Below are positions 23,111 to 48,861 of a stretch of 64,000 nucleotides of DNA, piece by piece. The notes below the pieces were generated by a model. It did not search any database, had not been told where the DNA came from, and was given only the letters and a program-made list of their open reading frames with translations. Both the position numbers and the translations under genes were made by a program. The number at the start of each line of letters is the position of its first letter. The first letter of the stretch is position 1. Location: the NCBI RefSeq assembly GCF_988242995.1, contig NZ_OZ547043.1. One strand, 5' to 3'.

Positions 23111-23116
23111 TGAACA

Positions 23117-23636: not shown

Positions 23637-23662
<26 letters not shown>
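23117..23662 (+). CDS. nu1: Terminase small subunit
   Basis: 181-aa ORF near-identical to lambda Nu1. Confidence 0.95.
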
Positions 23663-27343
<3,681 letters not shown>

Positions 27344-27363
<20 letters not shown>

Positions 27364-28663
27364 TCTCCCGCATATTTCCAGCATGGCCTTTAATGAGCCG
27401 CTGATGCTTGAACCCGCCTATGCGCGGGTTTTCTTTTGTGCGCTTGCAGGCCAGCTTGGGATCAGCCGCCTGACGGATGCGGTGTCCGGCGACAGCCTGA
27501 CTGCCCAGGAGGCACCCGCGACGCTGGCATTATCCGGTGATGATGACGGACCACGACAGGCCCGCAGTTATCAGGTCATGAACGGCATCGCCGTGCTGCC
27601 GGTGTCCGGCACGCTGGTCAGCCGGACGCGGGCGCTGCAGCCGTACTCGGGGATGACCGGTTACAACGGCATTATCGCCCGTCTGCAACAGGCTGCCAGC
27701 GACCCGATGGTGGACGGCATTCTGCTCGATATGGACACGCCAGGCGGAATGGTGGCGGGGGCATTTGACTGCGCTGACATCATCGCCCGTGTGCGTGACA
27801 TAAAACCGGTATGGGCGCTGGCCAACGACATGAACTGCAGTGCAGGTCAGCTGCTTGCCAGTGCCGCCTCCCGGCGTCTGGTCACGCAGACCGCCCGGAC
27901 AGGCTCCATCGGCGTCATGATGGCTCACAGTAATTACGGTGCTGCCCTGGAGAAACAGGGCGTGGAAATCACGCTGATTTACAGCGGCAGCCATAAGGTG
28001 GATGGCAATCCTTACAGCCATCTTCCGGATGACGTCCGGGAGACACTGCAGTCCCGGATGGACGCAACCCGCCGGATGTTTGCGCAGAAGGTGTCGGCAT
28101 ATACCGGCCTGTCTGTGCAGGCTGTGCTGGATACCGAGGCTGCAGTGTACAGCGGTCAGGAGGCCATTGATGCCGGACTGGCTGATGAACTTGTTAACAG
28201 CACCGATGCGATCACCGTCATGCGTGATGCACTGGATGCACATAAATCCCGTCTCTCAGGAGGGCGAATGACCAAAGAGACTCAATCAACAACTGTTTCA
28301 GCCACCGCTTCGCAGGCTGACGTTACTGAGGTGGTGCCAGCGACGGAGGGCGAAAACGCCAGCGCGGCGCAGCCGGACGTGAACGCGCAGATCACCGCAG
28401 CGGTTGCGGCAGAAAACAGCCGCATTATGGGGATCCTCAACTGTGAGGAGGCTCACGGACGCGAAGAACAGGCGCGCGTTCTGGCAGAAACCCCCGGTAT
28501 GACCGTGGAAACGGCCCGCCGCATTCTGGCCGCAGCACCACAGAGTGCACAGGCGCGCAGTGACACTGCGCTGGATCGTCTGATGCAGGGGGCACCGGCA
28601 CCGCTGGCTGCAGGTAACCCGGCATCTGATGCCGTTAACGATTTGCTGAACACACCAGTGTAA
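27344..28663 (+). CDS. C: Head protease/scaffold C (GTG start; Nu3 nested in frame)
   Basis: 439 aa from (V)TAELRNLPHISSMAF..., GGAGGAGG RBS; matches lambda gpC. Confidence 0.9.
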
Positions 28664-28672
28664 GGGATGTTT

Positions 28673-29005
28673 ATGACGAGCAAAGAAACCTTTACCCATT
28701 ACCAGCCGCTGGGCAACAGTGACCCGGCTCATACCGCAACCGCGCCCGGCGGATTGAGTGCGAAAGCGCCTGCAATGACCCCGCTGATGCTGGACACCTC
28801 CACCCGTAAGCTGGTTGCGTGGGATGGCACCACCGACGGTGCTGCCGTTGGCATTCTGGCGGTTGCTGCTGACCAGACCAGCACCACGCTGACGTTCTAC
28901 AAGTCCGGCACGTTCCGTTATGAGGATGTGCTCTGGCCGGAGGCTGCCAGCGACGAGACGAAAAAACGGACCGCGTTTGCCGGAACGGCAATCAGCATCG
29001 TTTAA
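28673..29005 (+). CDS. D: Head decoration protein D
   Basis: 110 aa [27 protein letters not shown]... matches lambda gpD. Confidence 0.95.
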
Positions 29006-29025
29006 CCTTACCCTTCATCACTAAA

Positions 29026-29048
29026 GGCCGCCTGTGCGGCTTTTTTTA
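29026..29048 (+). terminator. Hairpin plus T-run between D and E
   Basis: GGCCGC-CTGT-GCGGCC followed by TTTTTTT. Confidence 0.4.
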
Positions 29049-29060
29049 CGGGATTTTTTT

Positions 29061-29315
29061 ATGTCGATGTACACAACCGCCCAGCTGCTGGCGGCAAATG
29101 AGCAGAAATTTAAGTTTGATCCGCTGTTTCTGCGTCTCTTTTTCCGTGAGAGCTATCCCTTCACCACGGAGAAAGTCTATCTCTCACAAATTCCGGGGCT
29201 GGTAAACATGGCGCTGTACGTTTCGCCGATTGTTTCCGGTGAGGTTATCCGCTCCCGTGGCGGCTCCACCTCTGAATTTACGCCGGGATATGTCAAGCCG
29301 AAGCACTTAGCATGA
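29061..29315 (+). pseudogene. E: Major capsid gene E, 5' fragment (codons 1-84) truncated by the satellite insertion
   Basis: MSMYTTAQLLAANEQKFKFDPLF...GYVKPKH then two foreign codons and stop; the rest of E resumes at 40394. Confidence 0.9.
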
Positions 29316-29468
29316 CTTTCTGAGGCTTTCGTGTAGTTGCTGGTTTTTACACTTAATCTTTTGATAATAAAGAATAAGTTTATCTGGTGCTTTCACTGAA
29401 TTTTCCTCGTTATCTGTGTGTTGCAATCATCTCTGTATTGCAGCTTGTATTGCTTTTTGGGGCTAAAA

Positions 29469-30704
29469 ATGGCTGGCGAGAACAAACTGAGCGACAAAGC
29501 GCTTAAAGGATATCTGGGGAAACCCAGAGAAAAGCAGATCACCATTGCTGATGGAAAGGGGCTTTCTATTCGTGTGAGTACTAAAGGGGCTGTGAGCTTT
29601 GTTTTCTTCTACAGGTTAGCAGGTGGCCGGGCTGCTCCGGTCTGGCTAACGTTGGGTAAATATCCTGATATGTCACTCAAACAGGCAAGGGAAAAGCGCG
29701 ACGAGTGCCGTGGTTGGTTGGCTGACAAACGTGATCCGCGTATCCAGATTAAGATTCAGGCTGAAGAACGCTTAAAGCCGGTTACAGTGGAGGATGCACT
29801 AAATTACTGGTATGAAAATTACTGTAAGGTGCGTCGTAAAACTCATGCTGTAACGCTTGGCAGATTTCGAAAGCATATCTTTCCCTATATCGGTCATTTG
29901 CCCGTAAATGACACTCACCTATATGAATGGCTGGACTGTTTTGACCGAATTAAACGTAATGCACCAGTTATGGCGGCGTATGTTTTTTCTGACACTAAAT
30001 TAGCTCTTCGTTTTTGTCGGGTACGCCAGTACGCGACGTGTGATGCTTTAAAGGATTTGCGCATGAGTGATGTGGGGCAGATTGCAGGTAAGCGGGATCG
30101 GGTTCTGGATGAAGCCGAACTCGGCCAGCTCTGGAAGGCAATTTTTGTCGAGCCTGATTTAAAACTAATGTCTGAATACACGCGAAAAATGTTTGTGCTT
30201 TGTACAGTATTTGGATGTCGAATGAGTGAAGCCCGATTATCAGAATGGAGCGAATGGGATCTCGAAAGTTGGGTTTGGACTGTACCAAAAGATCACTCAA
30301 AAACTGGTGTTGAAATCGTCAGACCAGTACCTGAAATTCTACGACAGTGGGTAACGGATGTTCACGAAGAGACAAAACATACTGGTTATGTGCTGGGAAG
30401 TCTGCGAATTAGAGAAAGCGTAAGCAAGATTGGGGGGAAAATCGGTAAACGTTTGGGCCATGAAAAACAATGGTCACTACACGACCTTAGAAGAACGCTA
30501 TCTACTCATCTAAGTGATCTCGGTGTTGAATTTTATGTAGTAGAACAACTGTTAGGCCATGCGCTACCTGGCGTGGCAGGTGTTTACAACCGGAGTAAGT
30601 TTATGGCTAAAAAACTGGATGCTCTGGAACTCTGGACTACATATCTCAATAGCATCGCAGCTGCTGATTCAAAAGTGACAATCCTCAAACAAAAGGTTGG
30701 TTAA
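29469..30704 (+). CDS. Satellite tyrosine integrase (P4-type)
   Basis: From MAGENKLSDKALKGYLG...; catalytic region HDLRRT...LLGH...VYNRS; located at the element's left end. Confidence 0.85.
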   Translation: MAGENKLSDKALKGYLGKPREKQITIADGKGLSIRVSTKGAVSFVFFYRLAGGRAAPVWLTLGKYPDMSLKQAREKRDECRGWLADKRDPRIQIKIQAEERLKPVTVEDALNYWYENYCKVRRKTHAVTLGRFRKHIFPYIGHLPVNDTHLYEWLDCFDRIKRNAPVMAAYVFSDTKLALRFCRVRQYATCDALKDLRMSDVGQIAGKRDRVLDEAELGQLWKAIFVEPDLKLMSEYTRKMFVLCTVFGCRMSEARLSEWSEWDLESWVWTVPKDHSKTGVEIVRPVPEILRQWVTDVHEETKHTGYVLGSLRIRESVSKIGGKIGKRLGHEKQWSLHDLRRTLSTHLSDLGVEFYVVEQLLGHALPGVAGVYNRSKFMAKKLDALELWTTYLNSIAAADSKVTILKQKVG

Positions 30705-30705
30705 C

Positions 30706-30933
30706 ATGAAAAAAATGGCAATTGTTGATAAAAAGGGTCTGGAGTACATTCCTAACATTGACCGAATGATCCGTGAGAAAGAATGTCGGGAGCTAACCAC
30801 TCTTGCGAACAGCACACGCTGGAAGCTGGAGAAGGAAGGAAAATTTCCTAAGCGGATCAAGATTGGTTCCACTGCTGTTGCATATCGTCTTTCAGAAGTG
30901 CAGGCATGGATTCGAGGTGAGTGGGTAGTTTAA
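30706..30933 (+). CDS. alpA: AlpA-family HTH regulator/excisionase
   Basis: 75-aa ORF directly after int; the ORF-track start at 30697 is TTG, ATG at 30706 preferred. Confidence 0.7.
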   Translation: MKKMAIVDKKGLEYIPNIDRMIREKECRELTTLANSTRWKLEKEGKFPKRIKIGSTAVAYRLSEVQAWIRGEWVV

Positions 30934-31002
30934 ATTATCTCAGAATAAAATATTATGAATTACTGATTTGAGAATTTGTACTCAAATCAGTAATAACATT
31001 CT

Positions 31003-31539
31003 TTATAAGAGATTAAATCCAAATAAAGAGTAATCATATACCGGGGTGCATTGCATCCCACTGAATATGCTGATGTTTTTTTCTGTTTCTATCCTTTTTT
31101 CAATAAGTTGTTGTATATTTTTACAGTACAATTTGTGTGTGATGTTATTATCGTAAGCCTGATATAGCAACGTCAATGTTGATGCTATGAAACATGCAGA
31201 AAGAAAATGAACTAGTACATGTGAGCGTTTTTTGGTTGTCCATGATGCATTCGCTTGTGAAATATAAATCATTCTGAGAATGATAATGATGATAGACAGT
31301 AACAGACCACTCAATAAAATAAGTATTGGGTTTGCGTATTTAATTAATGGTTGAGAGCAAAAAACTATTATAGCTCCTGTGACTGCGTATGAGAAAAAGG
31401 AGTAATTAAACTTCTTACTCCTTCTCTCAAGTATTTTAATTTCATCTTGTGTGGGGGTTTTAGATGCCTCTAATATAAGTTTATTAAATGTTTCTGTTAT
31501 CTTGTTTTTTGTGTTTGTGGCTATTTTTTTTAGATTCAT
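31003..31539 (-). CDS. Hypothetical AT-rich membrane protein (2-3 predicted TM helices)
   Basis: 178-aa ORF with hydrophobic segments AVTGAIIVFCSQPLI and ILILLSGLLLSIIIIIL; convergent with alpA. Confidence 0.5.
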   Translation of the reverse strand: MNLKKIATNTKNKITETFNKLILEASKTPTQDEIKILERRSKKFNYSFFSYAVTGAIIVFCSQPLIKYANPILILLSGLLLSIIIIILRMIYISQANASWTTKKRSHVLVHFLSACFIASTLTLLYQAYDNNITHKLYCKNIQQLIEKRIETEKNISIFSGMQCTPVYDYSLFGFNLL

Positions 31540-31889
31540 AGCATTCTAACTCCCTTAACTTATTTATTACTTTCTCTTTATGATAAGAGAGGGGAATGAC
31601 TTGGTAAAGTGATTTGTCATTAATAATGATAATCCTTGCGATAAATATTTCTGCAAGTTATTTACCTGTTTGTTGCTATCTTGTTAAGCGTTGGGTGTGG
31701 TTTATGTTTGGAGCGACTTTATTTAATCGTGATTTTATGGATTTATATTTATATCCTGTAAGATAAGCGCATGTTAGTTCAGGAGTAGTGTCAGATAAAA
31801 TTATTCGGAGTAGAACTACCTTTTCTGTTTATTGCCAGTATTTACATAGCAATGCGCCGTAGTTACTCACATCACGGCGCTGATACTAA

Positions 31890-32195
31890 TTATTCAGATT
31901 CTTTGGCTTTACGCCGCTGGAGTTCTTCACGAGCGACGGCTACGAGTTGCCCGATTTCCTCCGCTGCCTTGATACCGATTTGTTCGACCTTAGCTAAGGC
32001 ATCCAGTGAAGACACGAGGGGATTTTCTCCGCTTCCTTCTGCCTGGCGGCGGGCGATTTCACCGCGCATGGCGGTTACGATAAATCCGGCATTGCTTTCA
32101 CCGTCCAGCTTAACGGATTCCATCCCTTGCATAACATCTAGTGGGACTCTGACAGTTGTCAGTTGTGATTTTGCGTTTTTGTTAGCCGTTGCCAT
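31890..32195 (-). CDS. Putative ribbon-helix-helix regulator (candidate satellite repressor)
   Basis: 101-aa ORF; TVRVPLDVMQGMESVKLDGESNAGFIVTAMRGEIARR fits a beta-strand/helix/G-x-S/helix RHH pattern; divergent from the primase operon. Confidence 0.4.
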   Translation of the reverse strand: MATANKNAKSQLTTVRVPLDVMQGMESVKLDGESNAGFIVTAMRGEIARRQAEGSGENPLVSSLDALAKVEQIGIKAAEEIGQLVAVAREELQRRKAKESE

Positions 32196-32256
32196 TTCTG
32201 AAACTCCTAATCATCGGTGTGTTTCAGTATACACAAAAAAAGAAATACAAAAAGCC

Positions 32257-32292
32257 TTGACGTGTGTTTCATGCGCTCATAACATGAAACAC
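32257..32292 (+). promoter_or_regulatory. Promoter (TTGACG-17 nt-TAACAT) overlapped by a palindromic operator
   Basis: Inverted repeat GTGTTTCATG (32264-32273) / CATGAAACAC (32283-32292) straddles the -10 element. Confidence 0.5.
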
Positions 32293-32385
32293 ACCGAAAG
32301 GATTGTTGAAATACAAAGAGCAACGCCCCGCAGTGCTGGGAACACATACGGGGCGTCTAACCAACAACGTAAACTAGGAGCCGTT

Positions 32386-32583
32386 ATGGTTGCTGTAAAT
32401 CATATACCACACCTTGTACACACACAAACGGCCTTTGTGTGGCGTTTTCTGGCACTGAGTGCCGGAGAATCTCAAATCATCCACGTAACCGCCTGGACGG
32501 AACGCGAAGCGCGTAGCCGTTGCCCGTCCGGTTGTGTTGCTGTATTCGCTGCAAAAATCCGCCAGGGAGTGAGTCATGCTTAA
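32386..32583 (+). CDS. Small hypothetical protein, first gene of the satellite rightward operon
   Basis: 65-aa ORF with AGGAG RBS 5 nt upstream of ATG 32386; the longer ORF-track frame from 31852 is rejected. Confidence 0.45.
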   Translation: MVAVNHIPHLVHTQTAFVWRFLALSAGESQIIHVTAWTEREARSRCPSGCVAVFAAKIRQGVSHA

Positions 32584-32761
32584 AACCTTCCGTGTATTTG
32601 CCCGAGCTGTTAACCCAATAGGCCACACAATTGGTATCGCTCAGAATGTGAAGGCTGTTAATGTTCAGACGGCTATTGCTGCGGTGAGAAGCGAATCATC
32701 AGAATATGGCTTATCACAAGTCATTATTTCAGCAGTGTATGAATTAAAAGAGGTGCATTAA
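32576..32761 (+). CDS. Small hypothetical protein
   Basis: 61-aa ORF; start overlaps the preceding stop (ATGCTTAA). Confidence 0.35.
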   Translation: MLKTFRVFARAVNPIGHTIGIAQNVKAVNVQTAIAAVRSESSEYGLSQVIISAVYELKEVH

Positions 32762-32952
32762 TGCAGGAAATCACATTACACGAAGCCGCTGAACGTGCGC
32801 ACCAGACAGAAATTATTTGCCGCCTTCTTGAGGTATATCCGAACAAAATTACAGATGCTGATATATCCGCGCTGGCGAGCCTACTGGCGCGCCTTTCGGG
32901 AAGTGTCGCTAGTTTCCTCATTGAGGAAGAAAGTAAGCTGGTGGGGGATTAA
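32761..32952 (+). CDS. Small hypothetical protein
   Basis: 63-aa ORF translationally coupled to neighbours. Confidence 0.35.
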   Translation: MQEITLHEAAERAHQTEIICRLLEVYPNKITDADISALASLLARLSGSVASFLIEEESKLVGD

Positions 32953-33174
32953 ATGAATACAGAACGGGAAGTCTTTTTTAAATTGTTAGCATGTGCAGAA
33001 AGTTCATTAACTTTAAATAATTCAGCAAAAGCAATATTAAATATGTGGCTTGATTGCATAAATGACAATGAAGATGCAAATATTGCTTATGGCCTGTTGT
33101 CACTTATTGATGAATCAGCAGAAAAACTCAATGACGCAATAAATAGTGCCCTGCTATCAAATAAGTCGAGTTAA
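32953..33174 (+). CDS. Small hypothetical protein
   Basis: 73-aa ORF, AT-rich. Confidence 0.35.
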   Translation: MNTEREVFFKLLACAESSLTLNNSAKAILNMWLDCINDNEDANIAYGLLSLIDESAEKLNDAINSALLSNKSS

Positions 33175-33191
33175 GTCGAGGAATAAATAAT

Positions 33192-33491
33192 ATGGAAATG
33201 AAAAATTCTGGCTTTATTGCCAGCGGCCCCGCTCGGCCTGAATTTATGAACGGCGATATTTACCGCGATAAATACGGCGGCACGGTAACGATTAAAGGCG
33301 TGGCAGAACGGCGCATCACTTACCGCCGTGAGGGGTATAGCTATGACTGCGTGATGCCTGTTTATCAGTTCCGGCGTGATTTTTCCCTGGTATATGCCGC
33401 ACCCCGCAGTAAGCCCATCAGCAGGGAAAAAGCGCGGGGAAACATCCAGAAAATGAAAAGCATGATTAACGCATTCAGGGGCAAAAAATGA
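33192..33491 (+). CDS. Hypothetical protein
   Basis: 99-aa ORF ending at the primase start. Confidence 0.4.
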   Translation: MEMKNSGFIASGPARPEFMNGDIYRDKYGGTVTIKGVAERRITYRREGYSYDCVMPVYQFRRDFSLVYAAPRSKPISREKARGNIQKMKSMINAFRGKK

Positions 33492-35239
33492 AACTGGCAC
33501 CGAACTTAAAAAAACAGCCACGCGACAGACTGACAGAGGTAATCATCTTTGCAGGTAGTGATGCGTGGAGCCATGCGAAAGAGTGGCGGGAATGGGCGGG
33601 TAAACATATTGCCGCCGACGATGTGCCGCCTGTCGTGCTGGCTGATGAGCAACTGAAAAATATCACCGATTACCGGATCATTGATGAAGATCGTCAGTGT
33701 GTGCGTGTTTACCGCGCAGGACATATCACAGAGCACAGCATGACGCAGATTGTTACGTTACTGGCTGTGGCTGGAGTGAAGACCGTACACGAATACGCGG
33801 GGATTACTGACACCAGCCCAGTGGATTTATCCGAGCAGTTGCCGCGACTCAAAGAGGAATGCGAGCGTGGGGAAAGTCTGGTGCTTAATCTTCCGACGAA
33901 GCAAAAGGCGCAACTTTCACAGATGGCAGACAGTGAACGTGCACAACTACTTGCCGATCGCTTTGATGGTGTGTGTGTTCATGCAGAAAGTGAAATCGTC
34001 CACGTATGGCGCGGCGGGGTATGGTGTCCGGTCAGCACAATGGAGCTGAGCCGCGAAATGGTGGCGATCTATTCAGAGCACAGGGCCACGTTCAGCAAAC
34101 GTGTAATCAATAACGCCGTGGAAGCGTTAAAAGTTATTGCCGACCCCATGGGGGAGCCGTCCGGTGATTTGCTACCGTTCACTAATGGTGTGCTTAACCT
34201 GAAAACGGGGGAATTTTCTCCGCACTCGCCGGAGCACTGGAGCACCACGCACAATGGCATTGAGTACACGCCACCAGTAGCAGGGGAAAACATCCGCGAT
34301 AATGCGCCAAATTTCCATAAATGGCTTGAACATGCTGCAAGAAAAGACCCGCGCAAGATGATGCGTATATGTGCCGCGTTATACATGATTATGGCGAACC
34401 GCTACGACTGGCAGATGTTCATTGAGGCCACCGGAGACGGGGGAAGCGGTAAGAGTACATTTACCCATATTGCCACCCTGCTTGCTGGCAAACAGAACAC
34501 CGTAAGCGCGGAGATGACATCACTCGATGATGCAGGAGGGCGCGCGCAGGTTGTCGGGAGTCGTCTTATCGTCCTTGCCGATCAGCCGAAATATACGGGG
34601 GAAGGCACGGGCATCAAGAAAATCACGGGAGGCGATCCCGTTGAAATTAACCCGAAATATGAGAAGCGATTCACGACGATAATAAGGGCGGTGGTACTGG
34701 CAACCAATAACGACCCGATGATCTTTACCGAACGGGCCGGAGGTGTGTCACGCCGTCGGGTGATTTTCCGGTTCGACAACATTGTAAGGGAGGACGAAAA
34801 AGACAAGGAATTACCGGAAAAGATAGCGGCAGAAATCCCCGTAATTATCCGCCGCTTGCTGGCTAATTTTGCTGACCCTGAAAAGGCACGGGCTTTATTA
34901 CTGGAACAGCGTGACGGTGATGAAGCTCTGGCAATAAAGCAGCAAACGGATCCGGTTGTTGAGCTTTGCGCGGCGCTGGAGTTTCTGGAGGAAGCTCGTG
35001 GGCTAATGATGGGCGGTGGTGGTGACACCGTGAAGTACACGACCAGAAACAGCCTTTACCGTGTCTATATGGCCTTCATGGCATACACAGGAAAGGGGAA
35101 ATGTTTGAGCGTGAATGAGTTCGGAAAGGCTATGAGGTCAGCGGCGAAAGTTTACGGATATGAATATATTACGCGAAAAGTTAAGGGAGTCACGCAGACC
35201 AACGCAACGACTACTGATGATTGCGATGCGTTTTTATAA
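33488..35239 (+). CDS. Primase/SF3-helicase replication protein
   Basis: 583-aa ORF with Walker A (TGDGGSGKST) in the C-terminal half and primase-like N-terminal half; followed by iterons. Confidence 0.8.
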   Translation: MKLAPNLKKQPRDRLTEVIIFAGSDAWSHAKEWREWAGKHIAADDVPPVVLADEQLKNITDYRIIDEDRQCVRVYRAGHITEHSMTQIVTLLAVAGVKTVHEYAGITDTSPVDLSEQLPRLKEECERGESLVLNLPTKQKAQLSQMADSERAQLLADRFDGVCVHAESEIVHVWRGGVWCPVSTMELSREMVAIYSEHRATFSKRVINNAVEALKVIADPMGEPSGDLLPFTNGVLNLKTGEFSPHSPEHWSTTHNGIEYTPPVAGENIRDNAPNFHKWLEHAARKDPRKMMRICAALYMIMANRYDWQMFIEATGDGGSGKSTFTHIATLLAGKQNTVSAEMTSLDDAGGRAQVVGSRLIVLADQPKYTGEGTGIKKITGGDPVEINPKYEKRFTTIIRAVVLATNNDPMIFTERAGGVSRRRVIFRFDNIVREDEKDKELPEKIAAEIPVIIRRLLANFADPEKARALLLEQRDGDEALAIKQQTDPVVELCAALEFLEEARGLMMGGGGDTVKYTTRNSLYRVYMAFMAYTGKGKCLSVNEFGKAMRSAAKVYGYEYITRKVKGVTQTNATTTDDCDAFL

Positions 35240-35252
35240 AAAATGGCAATGG

Positions 35253-35482
35253 TTATCTACCTTGTCTACCTGACTGAAAGAAAATACTTTTATTTCAATG
35301 TATTAATGCAGGTAGATAACTATTTTTCACTGTCTACCTGTTATCTACCTTATCTACCCATTTTTGTAGACAGGTAAGGAGACGGGTAGAGATGAGGTAG
35401 ACAGCTATTTGGGGCTGTCTACCTCCCTGAAACCCGCGCCATTACTGGCCTGATAACTAATCAGGTAGACAAGGTAGACAAG
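35253..35482. repeat. Satellite replication origin iterons (at least 10 copies of GGTAGACA/TGTCTACC in both orientations)
   Basis: Dense cluster of the 8-bp core in a 230-bp non-coding stretch just 3' of the primase gene. Confidence 0.75.
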
Positions 35483-35528
35483 GTGGTGGTGCACAAAAAA
35501 CTTTTTAAACGAGGGGGTAAAAATAAAA

Positions 35529-35786
35529 ATGCACACATCAGGAAAACTGAACAAACATATAAAGCCACATTACCGCGCCCTTGATATGGCTGAACACTGG
35601 CTAAGGGTGGCGATTAAGGCAATAGACCGCAACGCCGGGGAAGGATACGCGAAAGCACATCCCGAACTGATAAGCGCATTCATGACAACGGCGGCTGCAA
35701 ACTTTGCCACGCTGACCGAACGGGAGATTGCTGAAGCGGAGGAAGTGACAACAATCAATATTAAGTCCGGAGAGCAGGCAGCATGA
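35529..35786 (+). CDS. Hypothetical protein
   Basis: 85-aa ORF upstream of and coupled to ssb. Confidence 0.4.
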   Translation: MHTSGKLNKHIKPHYRALDMAEHWLRVAIKAIDRNAGEGYAKAHPELISAFMTTAAANFATLTEREIAEAEEVTTINIKSGEQAA

Positions 35787-36232
35787 CGGCGCAAATATCA
35801 GTTTACGGGCGGTTGGTGGACGACCCGCAGACAAAACAGACCAGCAAGGGCACCCCCATGACGCTGGCGCGTATGGCGGTATCACTGCCCTGCAGTCAGT
35901 CGGATGACGGTCTGGCGACGTTGTGGTTATCTGTCCTGGCGTTTGGCAGACAAGCCGACGCGCTGGCAAAGCATCACAAAGGCGAACTCCTGAGCGTGGC
36001 GGGTAACATGCAGATGAGCCAGTGGACTGGACAGAACGGCGAAACGCGGCAGGGCTGGCAGGTTATCGCAGACAGCGTAATCAGTGCGCGATCGGTGCGA
36101 CCGGGCGGCAAAAAAGGCCAACAGGGGCAGGCTACTGACGCACTGAACAGAGCAAAACAACAGGCAGATCAGCAAGGAAGCCAGCCACCAGAGGGAGATA
36201 ATGAGCAATGGGGAGATGATATCCCGTTTTAA
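35783..36232 (+). CDS. ssb: Single-stranded DNA-binding protein
   Basis: 149-aa ORF with Gly/Gln-rich linker and acidic C-terminal tail ending DDIPF. Confidence 0.8.
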   Translation: MTAQISVYGRLVDDPQTKQTSKGTPMTLARMAVSLPCSQSDDGLATLWLSVLAFGRQADALAKHHKGELLSVAGNMQMSQWTGQNGETRQGWQVIADSVISARSVRPGGKKGQQGQATDALNRAKQQADQQGSQPPEGDNEQWGDDIPF

Positions 36233-36448
36233 ATATTGCCAATAAAAAAAGCCGGAAAAAATAAATTTTCCGGCATGCTACATAAATCCCGACCAAAGGG
36301 AGTGAAGATATTAACACTAATTGTCCGCACTGAAGTTGTCACCCCAAAACTTTATACAACATTGCACTCGGTTGCATGTGTTCGCATGACAAATATCGGT
36401 GATAGCATATATCCACAATTATTTTTAATGAATGCAAAGAGGATGCGT

Positions 36449-37489
36449 ATGGTTGATTTATATTCGCCTACTCAGCTTGTACAGGTAGTTAATGCTGTAG
36501 ATGTACAAAAACAACTAAATGCGTTATTTACCAGTTTGTTTTTTACTCGCTCGGTAATGTTTGAATCGCGCGATATTATTCTTGATACAATCGACGATCC
36601 AAATATCCCAATTGCAGCGTTTTGTTCTCCTATGGTGGGTAGTAAAGTTTCACGTGACGAAGGGTACGAATCAAAAACAATTCGTCCAGGCTATATGAAG
36701 CCGAAAAGCAGCATTGATCCAAATAAGTTAGCTGTGCGCCCTGCTGGTGTGTCACCTGAGCAATACAATGCTTTTGGGGCGCGTAATATTAAAGTTAAAC
36801 AGGCGATTGTAAATCAGGCTAAAGCTATTCGTGCACGTATTGAATGGCTTGCTGTTCAGGCAATCACAACGGGGAAAAATATCATTGAGGGCGATGGTAT
36901 TGAACGTTATGAGCTGGACTGGAATATAAAACCACAAAATATCATCACTCAGTCTGGCGGTACTGAGTGGTCAGGTAAGGATAAAGAAACTTTTGATCCA
37001 AATGATGATATTGAGAGCTACGCAGAATTTAGTGAGGGCGTCACTAATATCATCATTATGGGTGGTAATGTATGGAAGAAATACCGTTCATTCAGAGCGA
37101 TAAAAGAGGCTTTGGATACCCGTCGTGGTTCTAATTCCGAACTGGAAACGGCCCTTAAAGACCTTGGTGATTCGGTGAGTTTTAAAGGGTATATGGGCGA
37201 TGTTGCGATTGTTGTTTACAGCGGGCGTTATACCGACGAGGACGGAACAGAAAAACATTTCCTTGATCCTGATTTGATGGTGCTTGGCAATACGGCTCTT
37301 CAGGGGATTGTCGCCTATGGCGGTATTCAGGATCCGGAGCTAATCCGAATGGGGCTGACTAAAGCCGAACTTGCACCGAAAAACTATATTGTGCCTGGTG
37401 ATCCGGCTATTGAATATGTGCAGACACATTCAGCACCACAGCCAATACCGGCCCGCATCAATCGTTTTGTTACCGTTCGCATTGGCTAA
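36449..37489 (+). CDS. Satellite-encoded major capsid protein homologue (lambda E-like)
   Basis: 346 aa; aligns with lambda E along its length (e.g. IITQSGGTEWSGKDKETFDPNDDIESYA vs NITQSGGTEWSKRDKSTYDPTDDIEAYA; DTRRGSNSELETALKDLG; GDVAIVVYSG). Confidence 0.8.
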   Translation: MVDLYSPTQLVQVVNAVDVQKQLNALFTSLFFTRSVMFESRDIILDTIDDPNIPIAAFCSPMVGSKVSRDEGYESKTIRPGYMKPKSSIDPNKLAVRPAGVSPEQYNAFGARNIKVKQAIVNQAKAIRARIEWLAVQAITTGKNIIEGDGIERYELDWNIKPQNIITQSGGTEWSGKDKETFDPNDDIESYAEFSEGVTNIIIMGGNVWKKYRSFRAIKEALDTRRGSNSELETALKDLGDSVSFKGYMGDVAIVVYSGRYTDEDGTEKHFLDPDLMVLGNTALQGIVAYGGIQDPELIRMGLTKAELAPKNYIVPGDPAIEYVQTHSAPQPIPARINRFVTVRIG

Positions 37490-37498
37490 GGGGGAGCA

Positions 37499-37840
37499 AT
37501 GGCTACTCATTACACTGAACTCATGGCTGGCACTGAAGCACTGGTGACTACGCTGGGGATATTTTCAGCTAATAAAGGGGTAATTCCTGCATTTACGCCA
37601 CTGATGCAGGAAGATGCAACAGGTGCACTGGTGGTATGGGATGGTTCGAGCGTAGGTAAAGCGGTTTATGTTTCCGCTGTACAAATCGACACCGCGAAAA
37701 AAACACAGGCTCAGGTCTATAAGACAGGTGTCTTAAATGTTGATGCTCTGAACTGGCCTGAGTCTGTTAAAGAACTGTCAGTAAAGGTTGCAGCGTTTGT
37801 TGGCTCAGGTATTTCTGTTCAGCCGCTGGCTCGTGTGTAA
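37499..37840 (+). CDS. Satellite-encoded head decoration protein homologue (lambda D-like)
   Basis: 113-aa ORF; TPLMQEDATGALVVWDGSSVGKAV...VYKTG parallels lambda [22 protein letters not shown]...FYKSG. Confidence 0.7.
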   Translation: MATHYTELMAGTEALVTTLGIFSANKGVIPAFTPLMQEDATGALVVWDGSSVGKAVYVSAVQIDTAKKTQAQVYKTGVLNVDALNWPESVKELSVKVAAFVGSGISVQPLARV

Positions 37841-37851
37841 AGGGGGATACA

Positions 37852-38235
37852 ATGCAGAATGATTACAATGACCTTAAGCCAATTGCCGAAATGATGTACC
37901 CGAATCCAGCTGTAGAGGAATTAAAAGCTATCGCTGACAAAATGTGTTTAAGCGAGCGCCTTGTTGATATGAATCAGGTGATGGAAATTACAACCCTGAG
38001 TCGTCGTACACTGCTAAACCTTGAGGCTAGTGGAGAGTTCCCGGAGCGTGTGCAGGTTACGGAAGGGCGTAAGGCCTGGTATTTAAGTGAAGTGATCGAC
38101 TGGATAAATAATATTCCTCGCGCTTCTGAATATTGCCGCGTACCTGTCCCAAAAAAGCCAGATGCGGCGCTATGCCTCAAGATTGAGCGTGTACGCCGCA
38201 ATGCACGGGATGGTCGCTATAAGCTGATTGGTTGA
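37852..38235 (+). CDS. Winged-HTH (AlpA/MerR-excisionase-like) protein adjacent to satellite cos
   Basis: 127-aa ORF; C-terminal MEITTLSRRTLLNLEASGEFPERVQVTEGRKAWYLSEVIDWINN HTH; strong RBS; ends 20 bp before the cos-homologous region. Confidence 0.6.
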   Translation: MQNDYNDLKPIAEMMYPNPAVEELKAIADKMCLSERLVDMNQVMEITTLSRRTLLNLEASGEFPERVQVTEGRKAWYLSEVIDWINNIPRASEYCRVPVPKKPDAALCLKIERVRRNARDGRYKLIG

Positions 38236-38257
38236 TGAAATTAGGGCCCGCTCTGGC

Positions 38258-38465
38258 TGGCGGGTCCTTTCCGGTGATCCAGAACGTTACGGGGCGTCAG
38301 GCGCGCAGATTCTTGCTATTTATGACAATTTTCTGCGATTTGCCGTTTCCGTTCTTCTTCCTCGTAACTTAGTGTTTTTACTAGAAATACCCTCTAAAAA
38401 GAAAGGAAATGACAGGTGCTGAAAACAGGCTTTTGGGTCTCCGTCATTTCCTTTCTCATTTTTAT
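38258..38465. promoter_or_regulatory. Satellite cos site homologous to the prophage cos (variant cosN GGGCGTCAGGCG at 38292-38303)
   Basis: About 210 bp alignable with 22896-23110; flanking and downstream repeat segments conserved, 12-mer differs at 5 positions. Confidence 0.75.
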
Positions 38466-38718
38466 CTAAAAGTAAGCATCGAGGCCACCCCAAATGCTTA
38501 TAGAGGTTATTGTGTCACTATGCGTACTGTTCAGGATTTAAAGTAGCAAGACATCTAGTTGCTTGCAGTTTTGGCGAATGATGTGAGGTTCTCTATAACA
38601 GATAATGTAACAAGTTACTGATATATTCTGTTATGGTTGACTTTAAATTTTGTTGCTCCTTCAATGAATTATTGAGGGGTAAAAATTAGGCGTGATAAGA
38701 ATCGATCACGCCTATTGT

Positions 38719-40035
38719 TTATCTTGAAGAAATTTTAGGCAGGCTTTTTAAAAATAAATCTTTATTTCTACTTGCATCAGTTAAAAGTGTTAGGAATATT
38801 TTATCTGTAGGAGTGCATGTGCTCTTGTTTAACAGTAATTCACCAAGTTTCTGTAATCGAGAGAATTGCCCATCCTCTTGGATTCTGTGACGAAGTGTAC
38901 TATCATTTTTAATAACATCAACAAATGCAGAAACCATGTTAATATCAAAGTGTTCAAACATTTCCAATATTAAAGGTGCAGCCCCATTTGAATAAAAATT
39001 CTTCCTTCCATACTGATAGCTGAAACCACGATGGCCAACATAAGTTTTTGTAATGGCTGAAACAAATTCAACAATATTATCTTCAGGGACGAAACTCGAG
39101 AATGGTAATAATTGGGTTACGATTTTTTCCTCTTCTGACCAATTATCTAAAGACTCGGTGAGTTTATTAATGAGAGGCTCAATAATAACTTTTCGGGATG
39201 CAGGGCTAATATACATCAGTCCATCTACCAATAGTATGAATTGTTGTGCCTTCTCTATCTTATTGTTGTTTCCTGAAACTAAATACTTGTCAAATTGTTG
39301 GCCGACTTTACGTCGGTCGTCTTTTGAAAGTAATGTCCATAAAATAGGTGCGCAAAATTCAATGTTGTTTCTGAGTTCACTTGATATATTGGATGAGCAG
39401 TATGTGCCAAAAAAACGAGAGGATAATTCACTGATATAAATTGCAGGTAGATCTGAAAAGGCTTGCTTAACTGCCAGACTATTTTTATTAAATGTTGCCG
39501 AATCCATTTCTGAAAGATATGTAGTTATATCTATGATGGCTGGTGGAAACTCTTTAGAAAGAACGTATTTATTACAATCATTAATCAGGTTCACTACTTT
39601 GATTAAATCAGGGTCGCTACTTTGTGGATGTCCACCAAATAGATTCCTGGTTTCTCTAGCTTGTTGTAATAGTTTCTGACCTTCTCGATCGATAACTCCT
39701 ATTTTAAATGCTCCATCTATTAAATCAAAGTCGCTCACATAATCCTGAAAATCTTCATACGTTTTAATTTCTTTTTTTTGTTTACACTCTTTGTTGAATA
39801 GATCTAGGCTACGATGAATTATCTTTTGACGTAAATCATCAACTACAGCATTCCAGTAAGCAGTGATGGCACTTCTATAACCTTTTACAGGAAGAACTCT
39901 TATTGCTTCTGAAATATATGGGCAGTCAACTACATCATGCCTCACAGTTGAGAGCGCAGTTTGTAACAATGTAACTTCTGTAGAGTCTAGTGGAGTTGGC
40001 TGCACTAAATGAGAACTTATCTCTGTACCCTTCAT
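38719..40035 (-). CDS. AT-rich 438-aa protein with HEPN-like R-x5-H motif (candidate anti-phage/abortive-infection protein)
   Basis: Single long ORF in the satellite's variable end; RNLFGGH at residues 130-136; no ATPase motifs; own AT-rich promoter region 40036-40150. Confidence 0.6.
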   Translation of the reverse strand: MKGTEISSHLVQPTPLDSTEVTLLQTALSTVRHDVVDCPYISEAIRVLPVKGYRSAITAYWNAVVDDLRQKIIHRSLDLFNKECKQKKEIKTYEDFQDYVSDFDLIDGAFKIGVIDREGQKLLQQARETRNLFGGHPQSSDPDLIKVVNLINDCNKYVLSKEFPPAIIDITTYLSEMDSATFNKNSLAVKQAFSDLPAIYISELSSRFFGTYCSSNISSELRNNIEFCAPILWTLLSKDDRRKVGQQFDKYLVSGNNNKIEKAQQFILLVDGLMYISPASRKVIIEPLINKLTESLDNWSEEEKIVTQLLPFSSFVPEDNIVEFVSAITKTYVGHRGFSYQYGRKNFYSNGAAPLILEMFEHFDINMVSAFVDVIKNDSTLRHRIQEDGQFSRLQKLGELLLNKSTCTPTDKIFLTLLTDASRNKDLFLKSLPKISSR

Positions 40036-40393
40036 TTCAGGATTTTCCTATTCTTTTCCATTTTTCTACTCTATTGAATTTGAAAAAGATATCAAGTTCG
40101 TTCTTGCCAGTTTTAAGTGGAAAATTTGATGTTACCTTATTGAGATAAGGCAGTTCTCTATAACCTATTGTTATTAATTATTTTTATTTTTTTCCAATTC
40201 AGATGTTTAGGGCTAAGAAGTTAAGTGAGAGTTCACAGCAAAACTGCTTCTAGTTCCTCACCGAGGAGCAAAAGGTTAAGACAGCGTACTTTGTATTGCA
40301 CAATGTATTGCAGAACCTTCTTTCGAAAGCTACAACAATCAATTTTATATTGAAAATTCAATCATATCCTTTCGATATTGACTCATATAACCC

Positions 40394-41179
40394 AAGCATG
40401 AGGTGAATCCGCAGATGACCCTGCGTCGCCTGCCGGATGAAGATCCGCAGAATCTGGCGGACCCGGCTTACCGCCGCCGTCGCATCATTATGCAGAACAT
40501 GCGTGACGAAGAGCTGGCCATTGCCCAGGTCGAAGAGATGCAGGCAGTTTCTGCCGTGCTTAAGGGCAAATACACCATGACCGGTGAAGCTTTCGATCCG
40601 GTTGAGGTGGATATGGGCCGCAGTGCGGCCAACAACATCACGCAGTCCGGCGGCACGGAGTGGAGCAAGCGTGACAAGTCCACGTATGACCCGACCGACG
40701 ATATCGAAGCCTACGCGCTGAACGCCAGCGGAGTGGTGAATATCATCGTGTTTGATCCGAAAGGCTGGGTGCTGTTCCGTTCCTTCAAAGCCGTCAAGGA
40801 GAAGCTGGATACTCGTCGCGGCTCTCATTCCGAGCTGGAGACAGCGGTGAAAGACCTGGGCAAAGCGGTGTCCTACAAGGGGATGTATGGCGATGTGGCC
40901 ATCGTCGTGTATTCCGGACAGTACGTGGAAAACGGCGTCAAAAAGAACTTCCTGCCGGACAACACGATGGTGCTGGGGAACACTCAGGCACGCGGTCTGC
41001 GCACCTATGGCTGCATTCAGGATGCGGACGCACAGCGCGAAGGCATTAACGCCTCTGCCCGTTACCCGAAAAACTGGGTGACCACCGGCGATCCGGCGCG
41101 TGAGTTCACCATGATTCAGTCAGCACCGCTGATGCTGCTGGCTGATCCTGATGAGTTCGTGTCTGTACAACTGGCGTAA
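40394..41179 (+). pseudogene. E: Major capsid gene E, 3' fragment (codons 83-341)
   Basis: From KHEVNPQMTLRRLPDEDPQ... to ...DEFVSVQLA, matching lambda E downstream of the break. Confidence 0.9.
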
Positions 41180-41181
41180 TC

Positions 41182-41208
41182 ATGGCCCTTCGGGGCCATT
41201 TTCTCTCT
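41182..41208 (+). terminator. Hairpin plus T-rich tract after E
   Basis: ATGGCCC-TTCG-GGGCCAT followed by TTTCTCTCT. Confidence 0.4.
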
Positions 41209-41220
41209 GTGGAGGAGTTC

Positions 41221-41619
41221 ATGACGAAAGATGAGCTGATTGCCCGTCTTCAGGAGCTGGGTGAGCAACTGAACCGCGATGTCAGTTTGACGGGAACGAA
41301 AGAAGAACTGGCGCTTCGTGTGGCAGAGCTGGAAGAAGAGCTTGATGACACGGATGAAACTGCCGGTCAGGACACCCCTCTCAGCCGGGAAAATGTGCTG
41401 ACCGGGCATGAAAATGAGGTGGTATCAGCGCAGCCGGATACCGTGATTCAGGATACGGCTGAACTGGTCACGGTCGTGGCACTGGTGACGCTGCATACTG
41501 ATGCGCTTCACGCCACGCGGGATAAACCTGTGGCATTTGTGCTGCCGGGAACGGCGTTTCGTGTCTCTGCCGGTGTGGCAGCCGAAATGACAGAACGTGG
41601 CCTGGCCAGAATGCAATAA
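41221..41619 (+). CDS. FI: DNA-packaging protein FI
   Basis: 132 aa from MTKDELIARLQELGEQL..., matches lambda FI; GGAGG RBS. Confidence 0.9.
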   Translation: MTKDELIARLQELGEQLNRDVSLTGTKEELALRVAELEEELDDTDETAGQDTPLSRENVLTGHENEVVSAQPDTVIQDTAELVTVVALVTLHTDALHATRDKPVAFVLPGTAFRVSAGVAAEMTERGLARMQ

Positions 41620-41630
41620 CGGGAGGCGCT

Positions 41631-41984
41631 GTGGCTGATTTCGATAACCTGTTCGATGCTGCCATTGCCCGCGCTGATGAAACGATACGCGGGTACATGG
41701 GAACGTCAGCCACCCTGACATCCGGTGAGCAGTCCGGTGCTGTGATACGTGGTGTTTTTGATGACCCTGAAAATATCAGCTATGCCGGACAGGGCGTGCG
41801 CGTTGAAGGCTCCAGCCCGTCCCTGTTTGTCCGGACTGATGAGGTGCGGCAGCTGCGGCGTGGAGACACGCTGACCATCGGTGAGGAAAACTTCTGGATA
41901 GACCGGGTTTCGCCGGATGATGGCGGAAGCTGTCATCTCTGGCTTGGGCGTGGCGTGCCGCCTGCCGTTAACCGTCGCCGCTGA
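41631..41984 (+). CDS. FII: Head-tail connector FII
   Basis: 117-aa ORF matching lambda FII. Confidence 0.9.
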   Translation: MADFDNLFDAAIARADETIRGYMGTSATLTSGEQSGAVIRGVFDDPENISYAGQGVRVEGSSPSLFVRTDEVRQLRRGDTLTIGEENFWIDRVSPDDGGSCHLWLGRGVPPAVNRRR

Positions 41985-41995
41985 AGGGGGGATGT

Positions 41996-42574
41996 ATGGC
42001 CATAAAAGGTCTTGAGCAGGCCATTGAAAACCTCAGCCGTATCAGCAGAACGGCGGTGCCTGGTGCCGCCGCAATGGCCATTAACCGCGTTGCTTCATCC
42101 GCGATATCGCAGTCGGCGTCACAGGTTGCCCGTGAGACAAAGGTACGCCGGAAACTGGTAAAGGAAAGGGCCAGGCTGAAAAGGGCCACGGTCAAAAATC
42201 CGCAGGCCAGAATCAGGGTTAACCGGGGGGATTTGCCCGTAATCAGGCTGGGTAACGCGCGGGTTGTCCTTTCGCGCCGCAGGCGTCGTAAAAAGGGGCA
42301 GCGTTCATCCCTGAAAGGTGGCGGCAGCGTGCTTGTGGTGGGTAACCGTCGTATTCCCGGCGCGTTTATTCAGCAACTGAAAAATGGCCGGTGGCATGTC
42401 ATGCAGCGTGTGGCCGGGAAAAACCGTTACCCCATTGATGTGGTGAAAATCCCGATGGCGGTGCCGCTGACCACGGCGTTTAAACAAAATATTGAGCGGA
42501 TACGGCGTGAACGTCTTCCGAAAGAGCTGGGCTATGCGCTGCAGCATCAACTGAGGATGGTAATAAAGCGATGA
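41996..42574 (+). CDS. Z: Tail completion protein Z
   Basis: 192-aa ORF matching lambda Z. Confidence 0.9.
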   Translation: MAIKGLEQAIENLSRISRTAVPGAAAMAINRVASSAISQSASQVARETKVRRKLVKERARLKRATVKNPQARIRVNRGDLPVIRLGNARVVLSRRRRRKKGQRSSLKGGGSVLVVGNRRIPGAFIQQLKNGRWHVMQRVAGKNRYPIDVVKIPMAVPLTTAFKQNIERIRRERLPKELGYALQHQLRMVIKR

Positions 42575-42660
42575 AACATACTGAACTCCGTGCAGCCGTA
42601 CTGGATGCACTGGAGAAGCATGACACCGGGGCGACGTTTTTTGATGGTCGCCCCGCTGTT

Positions 42661-43371
42661 TGTGCACAGAAAACCCCCAGCTAGGCTGGGGGTTCCGGAA
42701 AGCTTTCAGCTTTGAGCCAGTTATTAAAACCCCTTTTGATTTGTTAAAACACCTTGCGGTCTGGCAACTGCAAGTGTCAAACAAGAAATCAAAAGGGGGT
42801 CCCAATGGGGAACGAAAAGAGCTTAGCGCACACCCGATGGAACTGTAAATATCACATAGTTTTTGCGCCAAAATACCGAAGACAGGTGTTCTACAGAGAG
42901 AAGCGTAGAGCAATAGGCAGTATTTTGAGAAAGCTGTGTGAGTGGAAAAGCGTACGGATTCTGGAAGCTGAATGCTGTGCAGATCATATCCATATGCTTG
43001 TGGAGATCCCGCCCAAAATGAGCGTATCCGGGTTTATGGGATATCTGAAAGGGAAAAGCAGTCTGATGCTTTACGAGCAGTTTGGTGATTTGAAATTCAA
43101 ATACAGGAACAGGGAGTTCTGGTGCAGAGGGTACTACGTCGATACAGTGGGTAAGAACACGGCGAAGATACAGGATTACATAAAGCACCAGCTTGAAGAG
43201 GATAAAATGGGAGAGCAGTTATCGATTCCCTATCCGGGCAGCCCGTTTACGGGCCGTAAGTAACGAAGTTGGATGCAAATGTCAGATCGTGTGCGCCTGT
43301 TAGGGCGCGGCTGGTAAGAGAGCCTTATAGGCGCATTTGAAAAACCTCCGGCTATGCCGGAGGATATTTAT
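42661..43371 (+). mobile_element. IS200-family insertion sequence (about 711 bp)
   Basis: Left-end hairpin AAACCCCCAGCTAGGCTGGGGGTT, Y1-type transposase gene, right-end hairpin CCTCCGGC-TAT-GCCGGAGG; interrupts U. Confidence 0.85.
42805..43263 (+). CDS. tnpA: IS200 transposase TnpA (Y1 HUH)
   Basis: 152 aa from MGNEKSLAHTRWNCKYHIVFAPKYRRQ... with HxH (HIHML) motif. Confidence 0.9.
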   Translation: MGNEKSLAHTRWNCKYHIVFAPKYRRQVFYREKRRAIGSILRKLCEWKSVRILEAECCADHIHMLVEIPPKMSVSGFMGYLKGKSSLMLYEQFGDLKFKYRNREFWCRGYYVDTVGKNTAKIQDYIKHQLEEDKMGEQLSIPYPGSPFTGRK

Positions 43372-43684
43372 TTTGATGAGGCGGATTTTCCGGCAGTTGC
43401 CGTTTATCTCACCGGCGCTGAATACACGGGCGAAGAGCTGGACAGCGATACCTGGCAGGCGGAGCTGCATATCGAAGTTTTCCTGCCTGCTCAGGTGCCG
43501 GATTCAGAGCTGGATGCGTGGATGGAGTCCCGGATTTATCCGGTGATGAGCGATATCCCGGCACTGTCAGATTTGATCACCAGTATGGTGGCCAGCGGCT
43601 ATGACTACCGGCGCGACGATGATGCGGGCCTGTGGAGTTCAGCCGATCTGACTTATGTCATTACCTATGAAATGTGAGGACGCT

Positions 43685-44425
43685 ATGCCTGTACCAAATC
43701 CTACAATGCCGGTGAAAGGTGCCGGGACCACACTGTGGGTTTATAAGGGGAACGGTGACCCTTATGCGAACCCGCTTTCAGACGTGGACTGGTCGCGTCT
43801 GGCAAAAGTTAAAGACCTGACGCCCGGCGAACTGACCGCTGAGTCCTATGACGACAGCTATCTCGATGATGAAGATGCGGACTGGACTGCGACCGGGCAG
43901 GGGCAGAAATCAGCCGGAGATACCAGCTTCACGCTGGCGTGGATGCCCGGAGAGCAGGGGCAGCAGGCGCTGCTGGCGTGGTTTAATGAAGGTGATACCC
44001 GTGCCTATAAAATCCGCTTCCCGAACGGCACGGTCGATGTGTTCCGTGGCTGGGTCAGCAGTATCGGTAAAGCGGTGACGGCGAAGGAAGTGATCACCCG
44101 CACGGTGAAGGTCACCAATGTGGGACGCCCGTCGATGGCAGAAGATCGCAGCACGGTCACAGCGGCAACCGGCATGACCGTGACGCCTGCCAGCACCTCG
44201 GTGGTGAAAGGGCAGAGCACGACGCTGACCGTGGCATTCCAGCCGGAAGGCGCAACCGACAAGAGCTTCCGTGCGGTGTCTGCGGATAAAACAAAAGCCA
44301 CCGTGTCGGTCAGTGGTATGACCATCACCGTGAAAGGTGTTGCTGCAGGCAAGGTCAACATTCCGGTCGTATCCGGTAATGGTGAACTTGCTGCGGTTGC
44401 AGAAATCAACGTTACCGCCAGTTAA
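43685..44425 (+). CDS. V: Major tail protein V
   Basis: 246 aa from [22 protein letters not shown]..., matches lambda V. Confidence 0.9.
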
Positions 44426-44440
44426 TCCGGAGAGTCAGCG

Positions 44441-44863
44441 ATGTTCCTGAAAACCGAATCATTTGAACATAACGGTGTGACCGTCACGCTTTCTGAACTG
44501 TCAGCCCTGCAGCGTATTGAGCATCTCGCCCTGATGAAACGACAGGCAGAACAGGCGGAGTCAGACAGCAACCGGAAGTTTACTGTGGAAGACGCCATCA
44601 GAACCGGCGCTTTTGTGGTGGCGATGTCCCTGTGGCATAACCATCCGCAGAAGACAAAGCTGCCTTCCATGAATGAAGCCGTTAAACAGATTGAGCAGGA
44701 AGTGCTTACCACCTGGCCCACGGAGGCAATTTCTCATGCTGAAAACGTGGTGTACCGGCTGTCTGGTATGTATGAGTTTGTGGTGAATAATGCCCCTGAA
44801 CAGACAGAGGACGCCGGGCCCGCAGAGCCTGTTTCTGCGGGAAAGTGTTCGACGGTGAGCTGA
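44441..44863 (+). CDS. G: Tail assembly chaperone G
   Basis: 140-aa ORF matching lambda G. Confidence 0.9.
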   Translation: MFLKTESFEHNGVTVTLSELSALQRIEHLALMKRQAEQAESDSNRKFTVEDAIRTGAFVVAMSLWHNHPQKTKLPSMNEAVKQIEQEVLTTWPTEAISHAENVVYRLSGMYEFVVNNAPEQTEDAGPAEPVSAGKCSTVS

Positions 44864-48857: not shown

Positions 48858-48861
48858 TCCC

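Follow-up and report, generated by a model that had tools for sequence, protein, structure and literature searches.

The split capsid gene of an argU prophage and the 11capE-type satellite it most probably harbors

The 64,000-nucleotide stretch of contig NZ_OZ547043.1 (NCBI RefSeq assembly GCF_988242995.1) analyzed in this work, hereafter the window, contains a lambdoid prophage whose major capsid gene E is divided by about 11 kb of foreign DNA. The locus raises the question of what this insert is, how it came to lie in the capsid gene and whether it can leave it again. The best overall explanation, in which we have high confidence, is that the insert belongs to the 11capE, or E:Phage_cap_E:80, group of helper-embedded phage-inducible chromosomal islands (HE-PICIs). 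The founder of this group, 11capE, is a PICI of 11 kb that occupies the capsid gene E of the Escherichia coli NRG857c prophage 50icd, and the configuration was named HE-PICI by Tommasini, Mageeney and Williams (2023, NAR Genom Bioinform 5:lqad036; PMC10111431). An earlier, sequence-only reading of the window had implied that a satellite in the capsid gene of its own helper was something new. This implication does not hold, given that 201 instances of the configuration at exactly this E:Phage_cap_E:80 site have been published (PMC10111431). The finding is already known, and the window adds one instance to the published catalogue.

The split capsid gene

The 5' fragment of E (29061..29306, + strand) starts with the ATG at 29061 and comprises 246 nt, or 82 codons (MSMYTT…GYVKPKH), its translation ending in KPKH. 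In relatives, the Prokaryotic Genome Annotation Pipeline (PGAP) annotates this fragment as a partial major capsid protein. Foreign sequence follows directly 3' of the His82 codon CAC (29304-29306), and E continues from the GAG at 40400 (EVNPQMTLRR…) with codons 83-341, which make up the 3' fragment (40400..41179, + strand). The split had previously been placed between His84 and Glu85, two codons off from the actual His82/Glu83, and E had been said to resume at 40394. The latter position is the start of a repeated AAGCA, and unique helper sequence begins at 40399/40400.

When joins around both junctions were scanned in silico, only deletions of exactly 11,093 bp yielded a full-length E open reading frame (ORF) of 341 aa, of which 337/341 residues are identical to the lambda E sequence. 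Any register across AAGCA works, and the remaining in-frame joins reach about 97/341 identity to lambda E. The match of the rejoined protein to the Pfam family Phage_cap_E runs from end to end (model positions 1-328 of 329, E 4.9e-71). Since residues 5-339 correspond to model positions 1-328, the split after residue 82 falls at approximately model position 78-80.

The sole block identical at the two ends is AAGCA, which lies on the + strand at 29301..29305 in attL (helper side, AAGCCG-AAGCA) and at 40394..40398 in attR (satellite side, AACCC-AAGCA). A wider imperfect junction repeat reads CC[G/C]AAGCA[C/T], with His encoded by CAC on the left and by CAT on the right. The earlier claims of an approximately 11.1-kb satellite that can be excised precisely in silico, of a 5-bp AAGCA repeat at both junctions and of an uninterrupted E regenerated with a synonymous His codon were all borne out, together with the gene content described below. 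The predicted circle junction of the satellite attP is …AACCCAAGCACTTAGC…, and the predicted repaired E junction is …CCGAAGCATGAGGTG….

Relation to the founder element and gene content

Compared with the founder 11capE of NRG857c (NC_017634.1, L005 in our set of relatives), the 411-aa tyrosine integrase (29469..30704, +; phrog_1 integrase, E 4e-64) is identical at 408/411 positions to the founder integrase WP_000896726.1. HE-PICI integrases form one clade, and a doubled attP motif is unique to HE-PICIs (PMC10111431). Judging by its 99% identity to the founder, the integrase of the window no doubt belongs to this clade and to its subclade for the present site. The AlpA (75/75), capsid (345/346), decoration (112/113) and second helix-turn-helix (HTH; 127/127) proteins are also identical or nearly so, and the single-stranded DNA-binding protein (SSB) shows 95% identity. 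At the DNA level the two elements are about 97% identical over 29307-32182 and 35576-38463, with low identity in between, where the primase is 47% identical to that of the founder (module at 33480-35576 compared with 7222-9373 of L005). A primase this divergent between flanks that are 97% identical indicates modular exchange among HE-PICIs.

The two elements have the same E target codon, orientation, gene order, motif spacing, cos place and variant cosN. They differ in the location of the helper, which lies in argU (the DLP12 site) here and in icd in the founder, and in attB, which is AAGCCGAAGCA here and gives a 5-bp attL/attR identity compared with 10 bp in the founder. In addition, the cargo is a 438-aa PF27235 protein instead of HEPN+DUF262, and the helper gene U is broken by the insertion sequence IS200. 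Among the instances in the supplementary table of PMC10111431 are some whose helper, a 58-kb prophage in tRNA-Arg, has the sequence AGCCGAAGCA, as here.

The sequence features that characterize HE-PICIs were found in the window. The insert occupies a late-gene site at about codon 80 of Phage_cap_E and has the orientation of the helper late operon, its int, alpA and primase genes being on the + strand with the interrupted gene, like helper Nu1 to J. HE-PICIs also carry two co-oriented copies of tgTGTATTGCantgTGTATTGCa, the upstream one at 81±2 bp and the downstream one at 132±2 bp from the centre of attP (PMC10111431). Two exact matches to the doubled motif TGTATTGCnnnnTGTATTGC were detected, the upstream copy at 40292..40311 (+) and the downstream copy at 29434..29453 (+), while 0.05 matches would be expected in the 64-kb window. 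The 23-nt motif copies end at 40312 and start at 29432, which corresponds to 213 bp (81+132) across the reconstructed attP, in agreement with the published spacing. These doubled TGTATTGC motifs flanking attP may be integrase arm sites; their binding partner is left open in PMC10111431.

In this copy, the helper attB at E codons 79-82 is AAGCCGAAGCAT and the satellite attP is AACCCAAGCAC. Positions 29296-29306 and 40389-40399 of the window were compared with three relatives (L001-L003), and two attB alleles were distinguished among helper E genes: AAACCCAAGCA, identical to attP over 10 bp, and the lambda-like AAGCCGAAGCA, identical to it over 5 bp, which occurs in the window and in L002. L001 and L003 share the 10-bp AACCCAAGCA between attL and attR, whereas identity in this copy is limited to the 5 bp AAGCA, the right half of the published 10-bp block. 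The AGCCGAAGCA variant of attB is recurrent among helper E genes. The flanking mismatches sort cleanly, with helper-type bases left of attL and satellite-type bases left of attR, and this locates the exchange in the right half of the 10-bp block. The attB variant of this copy narrows the crossover to AAGCA, and integration evidently tolerates two mismatches to the left of it.

Gram-negative PICIs are organized in four zones, namely Integration, Bro/variable, Replication, and Late, the last with captured phage late genes and cos (PMC10111431). The zone order of the element, int-alpA / variable / primase-ori-SSB / capsid-decoration-HTH-cos-cargo, matches this published layout. PHROG annotation covered all ORFs of at least 60 aa, and PGAP annotation was taken from near-identical relatives. 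The integrase gene is followed by alpA, which encodes a 75-aa excisionase/regulator (30706..30933, +; phrog_2790). The variable zone includes a gene for a 178-aa hypothetical protein with hydrophobic segments (31003..31539, -), which is also present in the founder and had no PHROG, PADLOC or NCBIfam match, and a gene for a YlcI/YnfO-family protein (31890..32195, -; phrog_6522, named by PGAP in relatives); a Bro-N domain protein proper was not detected here. An Icd-like or repressor-like small ORF and three small conserved ORFs occupy 32380..33174 (+; phrog_1743, 3672, 1478, 2196), 'Icd-like' being the PGAP label in relatives for an ORF of this region.

The replication module (33192..35239, +) encodes a DUF4222 protein (33192-33491) and a primase/DUF5906 protein (33488-35239; phrog_864 DNA primase, E 3e-161). 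The iteron-type replication origin lies 3' of the primase gene (35254..35480) and holds 10/10 window copies of TRTCTACC, in both orientations, although only about 2 copies would be expected in the whole 64 kb. An 85-aa conserved ORF (from 35529, +; phrog_1231) and SSB (35783-36232, +; phrog_44) follow. The late zone encodes a 346-aa E-family major capsid protein (36449..37489, +; phrog_29, E 1.5e-89) and a D-like head decoration protein (37499..37840, +; phrog_49), which are 42% and 35% identical to helper E and D, respectively. They are followed by the second AlpA-family HTH protein of 127 aa (37852..38235, +; phrog_2790, E 1e-49; AlpA-family PDB entry 8c3t, E 2e-9), the satellite cos, and the 438-aa accessory gene of family PF27235 in the variable cargo slot (38719..40035, -). 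The integrase, AlpA, primase, iteron origin, SSB, capsid, decoration and cos listed in the sequence-only reading were thus all found.

Mobility of the embedded satellite

The sequence shows that the tyrosine integrase of the satellite recombined attP with attB at E codons 79-82 of the argU prophage. In the proposed life cycle, by homology with the founder, SOS induction would lead to excision and replication of the helper/satellite composite, and late excision of the satellite by Int and AlpA would then re-form an intact E. Q-antiterminated helper late transcription could read from D/E into satellite int-alpA. The free satellite would replicate from its primase/iteron origin, and helper terminase would package it via the satellite's own cos, in which cosQ and the Nu1-binding cosB are helper-like. 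Its heads might be assembled from helper proteins, from its own E and D homologues, or from both. In the founder, mitomycin C treatment resulted in composite excision and replication followed by precise satellite excision at about 2 h, as determined by qPCR (quantitative PCR) and deep sequencing (PMC10111431). Embedding in the helper capsid gene makes the integrity of a helper late gene dependent on satellite excision, and lets the satellite share helper induction, replication and possibly late transcription. At its publication in 2022-2023, the helper-embedded satellite was a new idea in satellite-helper biology. The earlier claim that helper E is silenced until excision agrees with the model proposed for the founder, in which excision is precise (PMC10111431), although in this copy the helper gene U is broken as well, by IS200.

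Several points weigh against a copy that still excises and spreads. Some 29 codons into its reading frame, the helper tail terminator gene U (42573-43680) is broken by an IS200 element (about 42661-43373), which was recognized by its TnpA (42808-43263; NCBIfam transpos_IS200, 147.7 bits) and by the STnc490/IS200 5' RNA (42672-42795); U continues as …FDEADFPAV… from about 43374. Restoring E alone would therefore probably give no infectious helper particles. The helper of this strain is probably tail-defective, and transfer from this copy would probably need either U from another lambdoid prophage or loss of the insertion sequence. For the founder itself, no helper or satellite virions could be detected (PMC10111431), so that transfer and the packaging route are hypothetical, and excision of the present copy is argued from the founder data. 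The 5-bp attL/attR identity is below the 7-bp strand-exchange segment typical of tyrosine integrases (PMC10111431). Because the satellite cosN differs from that of the helper at 7/12 overhang positions, cleavage by helper terminase is an assumption of the model. Finally, a promoter scan returned 23 promoter-like sites compared with 21.8 expected from shuffled sequence, no excess that could inform the read-through model.

Some of these observations would also fit a copy that belongs to the same HE-PICI family and is by now an immobile fossil in a decaying prophage, its satellite capable of neither excision nor transfer. The interruption of U by IS200 speaks for such a fossil, as does the lack of virions recovered even for the founder (PMC10111431). 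A decaying composite was encountered in one of the relatives (L004, NZ_CP070066.1, 3565034-3605433), where IS66 lies in the satellite primase gene, the helper portal gene contains a stop and the tape measure gene is frameshifted; some helper/satellite composites may accordingly be fossils. Nevertheless, the satellite int, alpA, primase, SSB, capsid and decoration ORFs are intact in the window, the core being 95-100% identical to the founder except for the swapped primase module, and the two attP arm motifs are undamaged, as is cos. The helper late ORFs, with the exception of E and U, have lambda-like lengths, and Int and AlpA suffice for excision, for which tails are not needed. We therefore consider an immobile fossil unlikely, while giving it real weight.

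Under the preferred assignment to the 11capE group, E is a regular integration target. The 400-bp attL junction, composed of the capsid 5' end and the int end, was counted where at least 80% of the 400 bp were covered. It occurs in 172/5,426 complete E. coli genomes (~3%) and recurs at an identity of at least 99% in many genomes. In all relatives inspected (L001-L005), the element lies between 5' and 3' partial capsid genes and is flanked by decoration and FI. At least 80% of the element is carried by 43 complete E. coli genomes, among which the best whole-element match has 96% coverage and 99.2% identity, and no 100% match was found in the complete E. coli genomes. The element is a patchwork of modules already known.

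This recurrence, and the split-capsid location shared by L001-L005, exclude both an accidental integration and an assembly artefact. An ordinary PICI with a chromosomal attB that landed off-target in E would find precedent in the 28 documented off-target integrations by HE-PICI integrases (PMC10111431) and some support in a core identity of only 5 bp in this copy; however, E is the regular target of the integrase subclade, as seen in 172 genomes here and in 201 published instances (PMC10111431), and the AGCCGAAGCA attB variant is itself recurrent, so that we give this origin next to no credence. A chimera or misjoin of a prophage contig with a separate chromosomal PICI, which the sequence-only reading had named as the finding that could overturn it, has nothing positive in its favor and is rejected as extremely improbable, since 172 complete genomes, assembled independently, share the junction, partial capsid genes are annotated at both ends of the element in L001-L005, the length of the insert is exactly what restores the frame, and the founder junction reads were verified experimentally (PMC10111431).

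Packaging signals, related systems and cargo

The helper cos (22897..23099, +; cosN 22929-22940) is located upstream of Nu1 (23117-23662) and aligns with lambda cos. The satellite cos (38261..38463, +; 203 bp, cosN 38293-38304) is 81% identical to it. The cosN overhangs are GGGCGTCAGGCG in the satellite and GGGCGGCGACCT in the helper, while the satellite cosQ (GGGTCCT) is helper-like and the cosB repeats R3/R2/R1 are conserved with both helper and lambda. The variant cosN GGGCGTCAGGCG is common to the founder and L001-L003, and its region was found in 71 E. coli genomes at one copy per genome. In the L004 element, cosN is canonical and cosB divergent, and the element encodes a small terminase subunit (TerS) of its own. 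No phage cos with the satellite cosN variant was found, the best deposited phage matches being 83% identical and lambda-type. The published cos homology in HE-PICI is a 258-bp region with 90% identity, and no mention of the cosN difference between satellite and helper was found in the available part of that paper (PMC10111431).

The combination of a satellite-specific cosN with helper-type cosQ and cosB could conceivably constitute a previously undescribed mechanism of cis-timing and packaging discrimination, a proposal that we regard as speculative and rather improbable. A private cosN may spare the embedded satellite from being cut during replication of the composite, whose two cos sites share one orientation and are only 15.4 kb apart. 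It may also restrict packaging to the satellite after excision, possibly into heads made of its own E and D homologues while helper E is still split. The residual interest of the locus lies in this conserved satellite-specific cosN and in how, or whether, embedded satellites get packaged. As a well-preserved example, the window also adds the argU location of the helper, the exchange of replication and cargo modules, and a helper crippled by IS200.

Among known satellites, the EcCICFT073-type cos PICIs (Fillol-Salom et al. 2018 ISME J; 2019 Mol Cell) resemble the element in their size of about 11 kb, the arrangement int-alpA-pri-ori, a late-zone gene of the capsid family, a lambda-related cos and lambdoid helpers. 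They use a chromosomal attB and act on the helper in trans, whereas this element is embedded in its helper. Their cosQ and cosN are helper-like, their cosB is different and Rpp retargets helper TerS; in contrast, cosB is helper-like and cosN is different here. No PDB Rpp chain was matched by the three small ORFs tested (37852-38235, 35529-35786 and 33192-33491), and together with the helper-like cosB this led us to reject packaging redirection of the EcCICFT073 type. Neither Rpp nor a PICI-specific cosB was thus found, and a distant Rpp analogue is still conceivable.

The capsid-forming PICIs (cf-PICIs; Alqurainy et al. 2023, Cell Host Microbe) reportedly possess all genes for heads and packaging and steal tails only. 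This module reportedly includes capsid, protease, portal, head-tail connectors and the terminase subunits TerS and TerL. The element of the window likewise has its own major capsid protein, but unlike cf-PICIs it contains capsid and decoration genes only, according to PHROG, which falls short of the complete head and packaging gene set.

Satellite P4 is similar in its primase-based replication, AlpA-like regulator and cos packaging by the helper, and its integrase belongs to the same broad clade as HE-PICI integrases (PMC10111431). Its helper is P2-like rather than lambdoid, and the present element differs further in lying inside the helper. No ORF matched a PHROG family annotated as P4 Sid, Psu or Delta, and the search for a P4-like immunity RNA gave no Rfam C4 or isrK match in the element, either at the gathering threshold or at E up to 1. 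A P4-like satellite was rejected on these results.

The cargo slot beside attR varies between elements. It is filled by the PF27235 protein in this copy, by HEPN+DUF262 in the founder and by TerS+DUF2971 in L003. Because the slot holds HEPN+DUF262 in the founder, the 438-aa PF27235 gene is a candidate anti-phage gene. Its product had no PADLOC or NCBIfam match, and the Pfam release used gave noise only. The AlphaFold model (pLDDT, predicted local distance difference test, 85) is an all-alpha solenoid with a weak ARM/HEAT/PUF-like resemblance (template-modelling score, TM, ~0.26). PF27235 is a widespread uncharacterised family, with 857 homologues in Enterobacteria, Xanthomonas, Stenotrophomonas and Campylobacterota.

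Helper and satellite together form a 58.2-kb composite island in argU (2846..61111), whose ends are marked by a 47-bp direct repeat (2846-2892 and 61065-61111; spacing 58,219 bp); argU itself, tRNA-Arg tct, lies at 2814-2890. The island occupies the DLP12 site, with sfm/fimZ-argU-intD on one flank and appY/ompT/envY/nfrA on the other. The helper carries cargo in two places. Between its replication genes and Q, a gene at 11775-15683 encodes a 1,302-aa intimin/invasin-like inverse autotransporter adhesin and holds a 300-nt repeat (13082-13381 and 13439-13738, 97% identical). Between the Q antiterminator gene (17457-17849) and the lysis genes, the region 18005-20764 encodes a Blc-like outer-membrane lipoprotein (18005-18529, -), a 319-aa protein (18722-19681) and an AraC/YdeO-like regulator (20024-20764).

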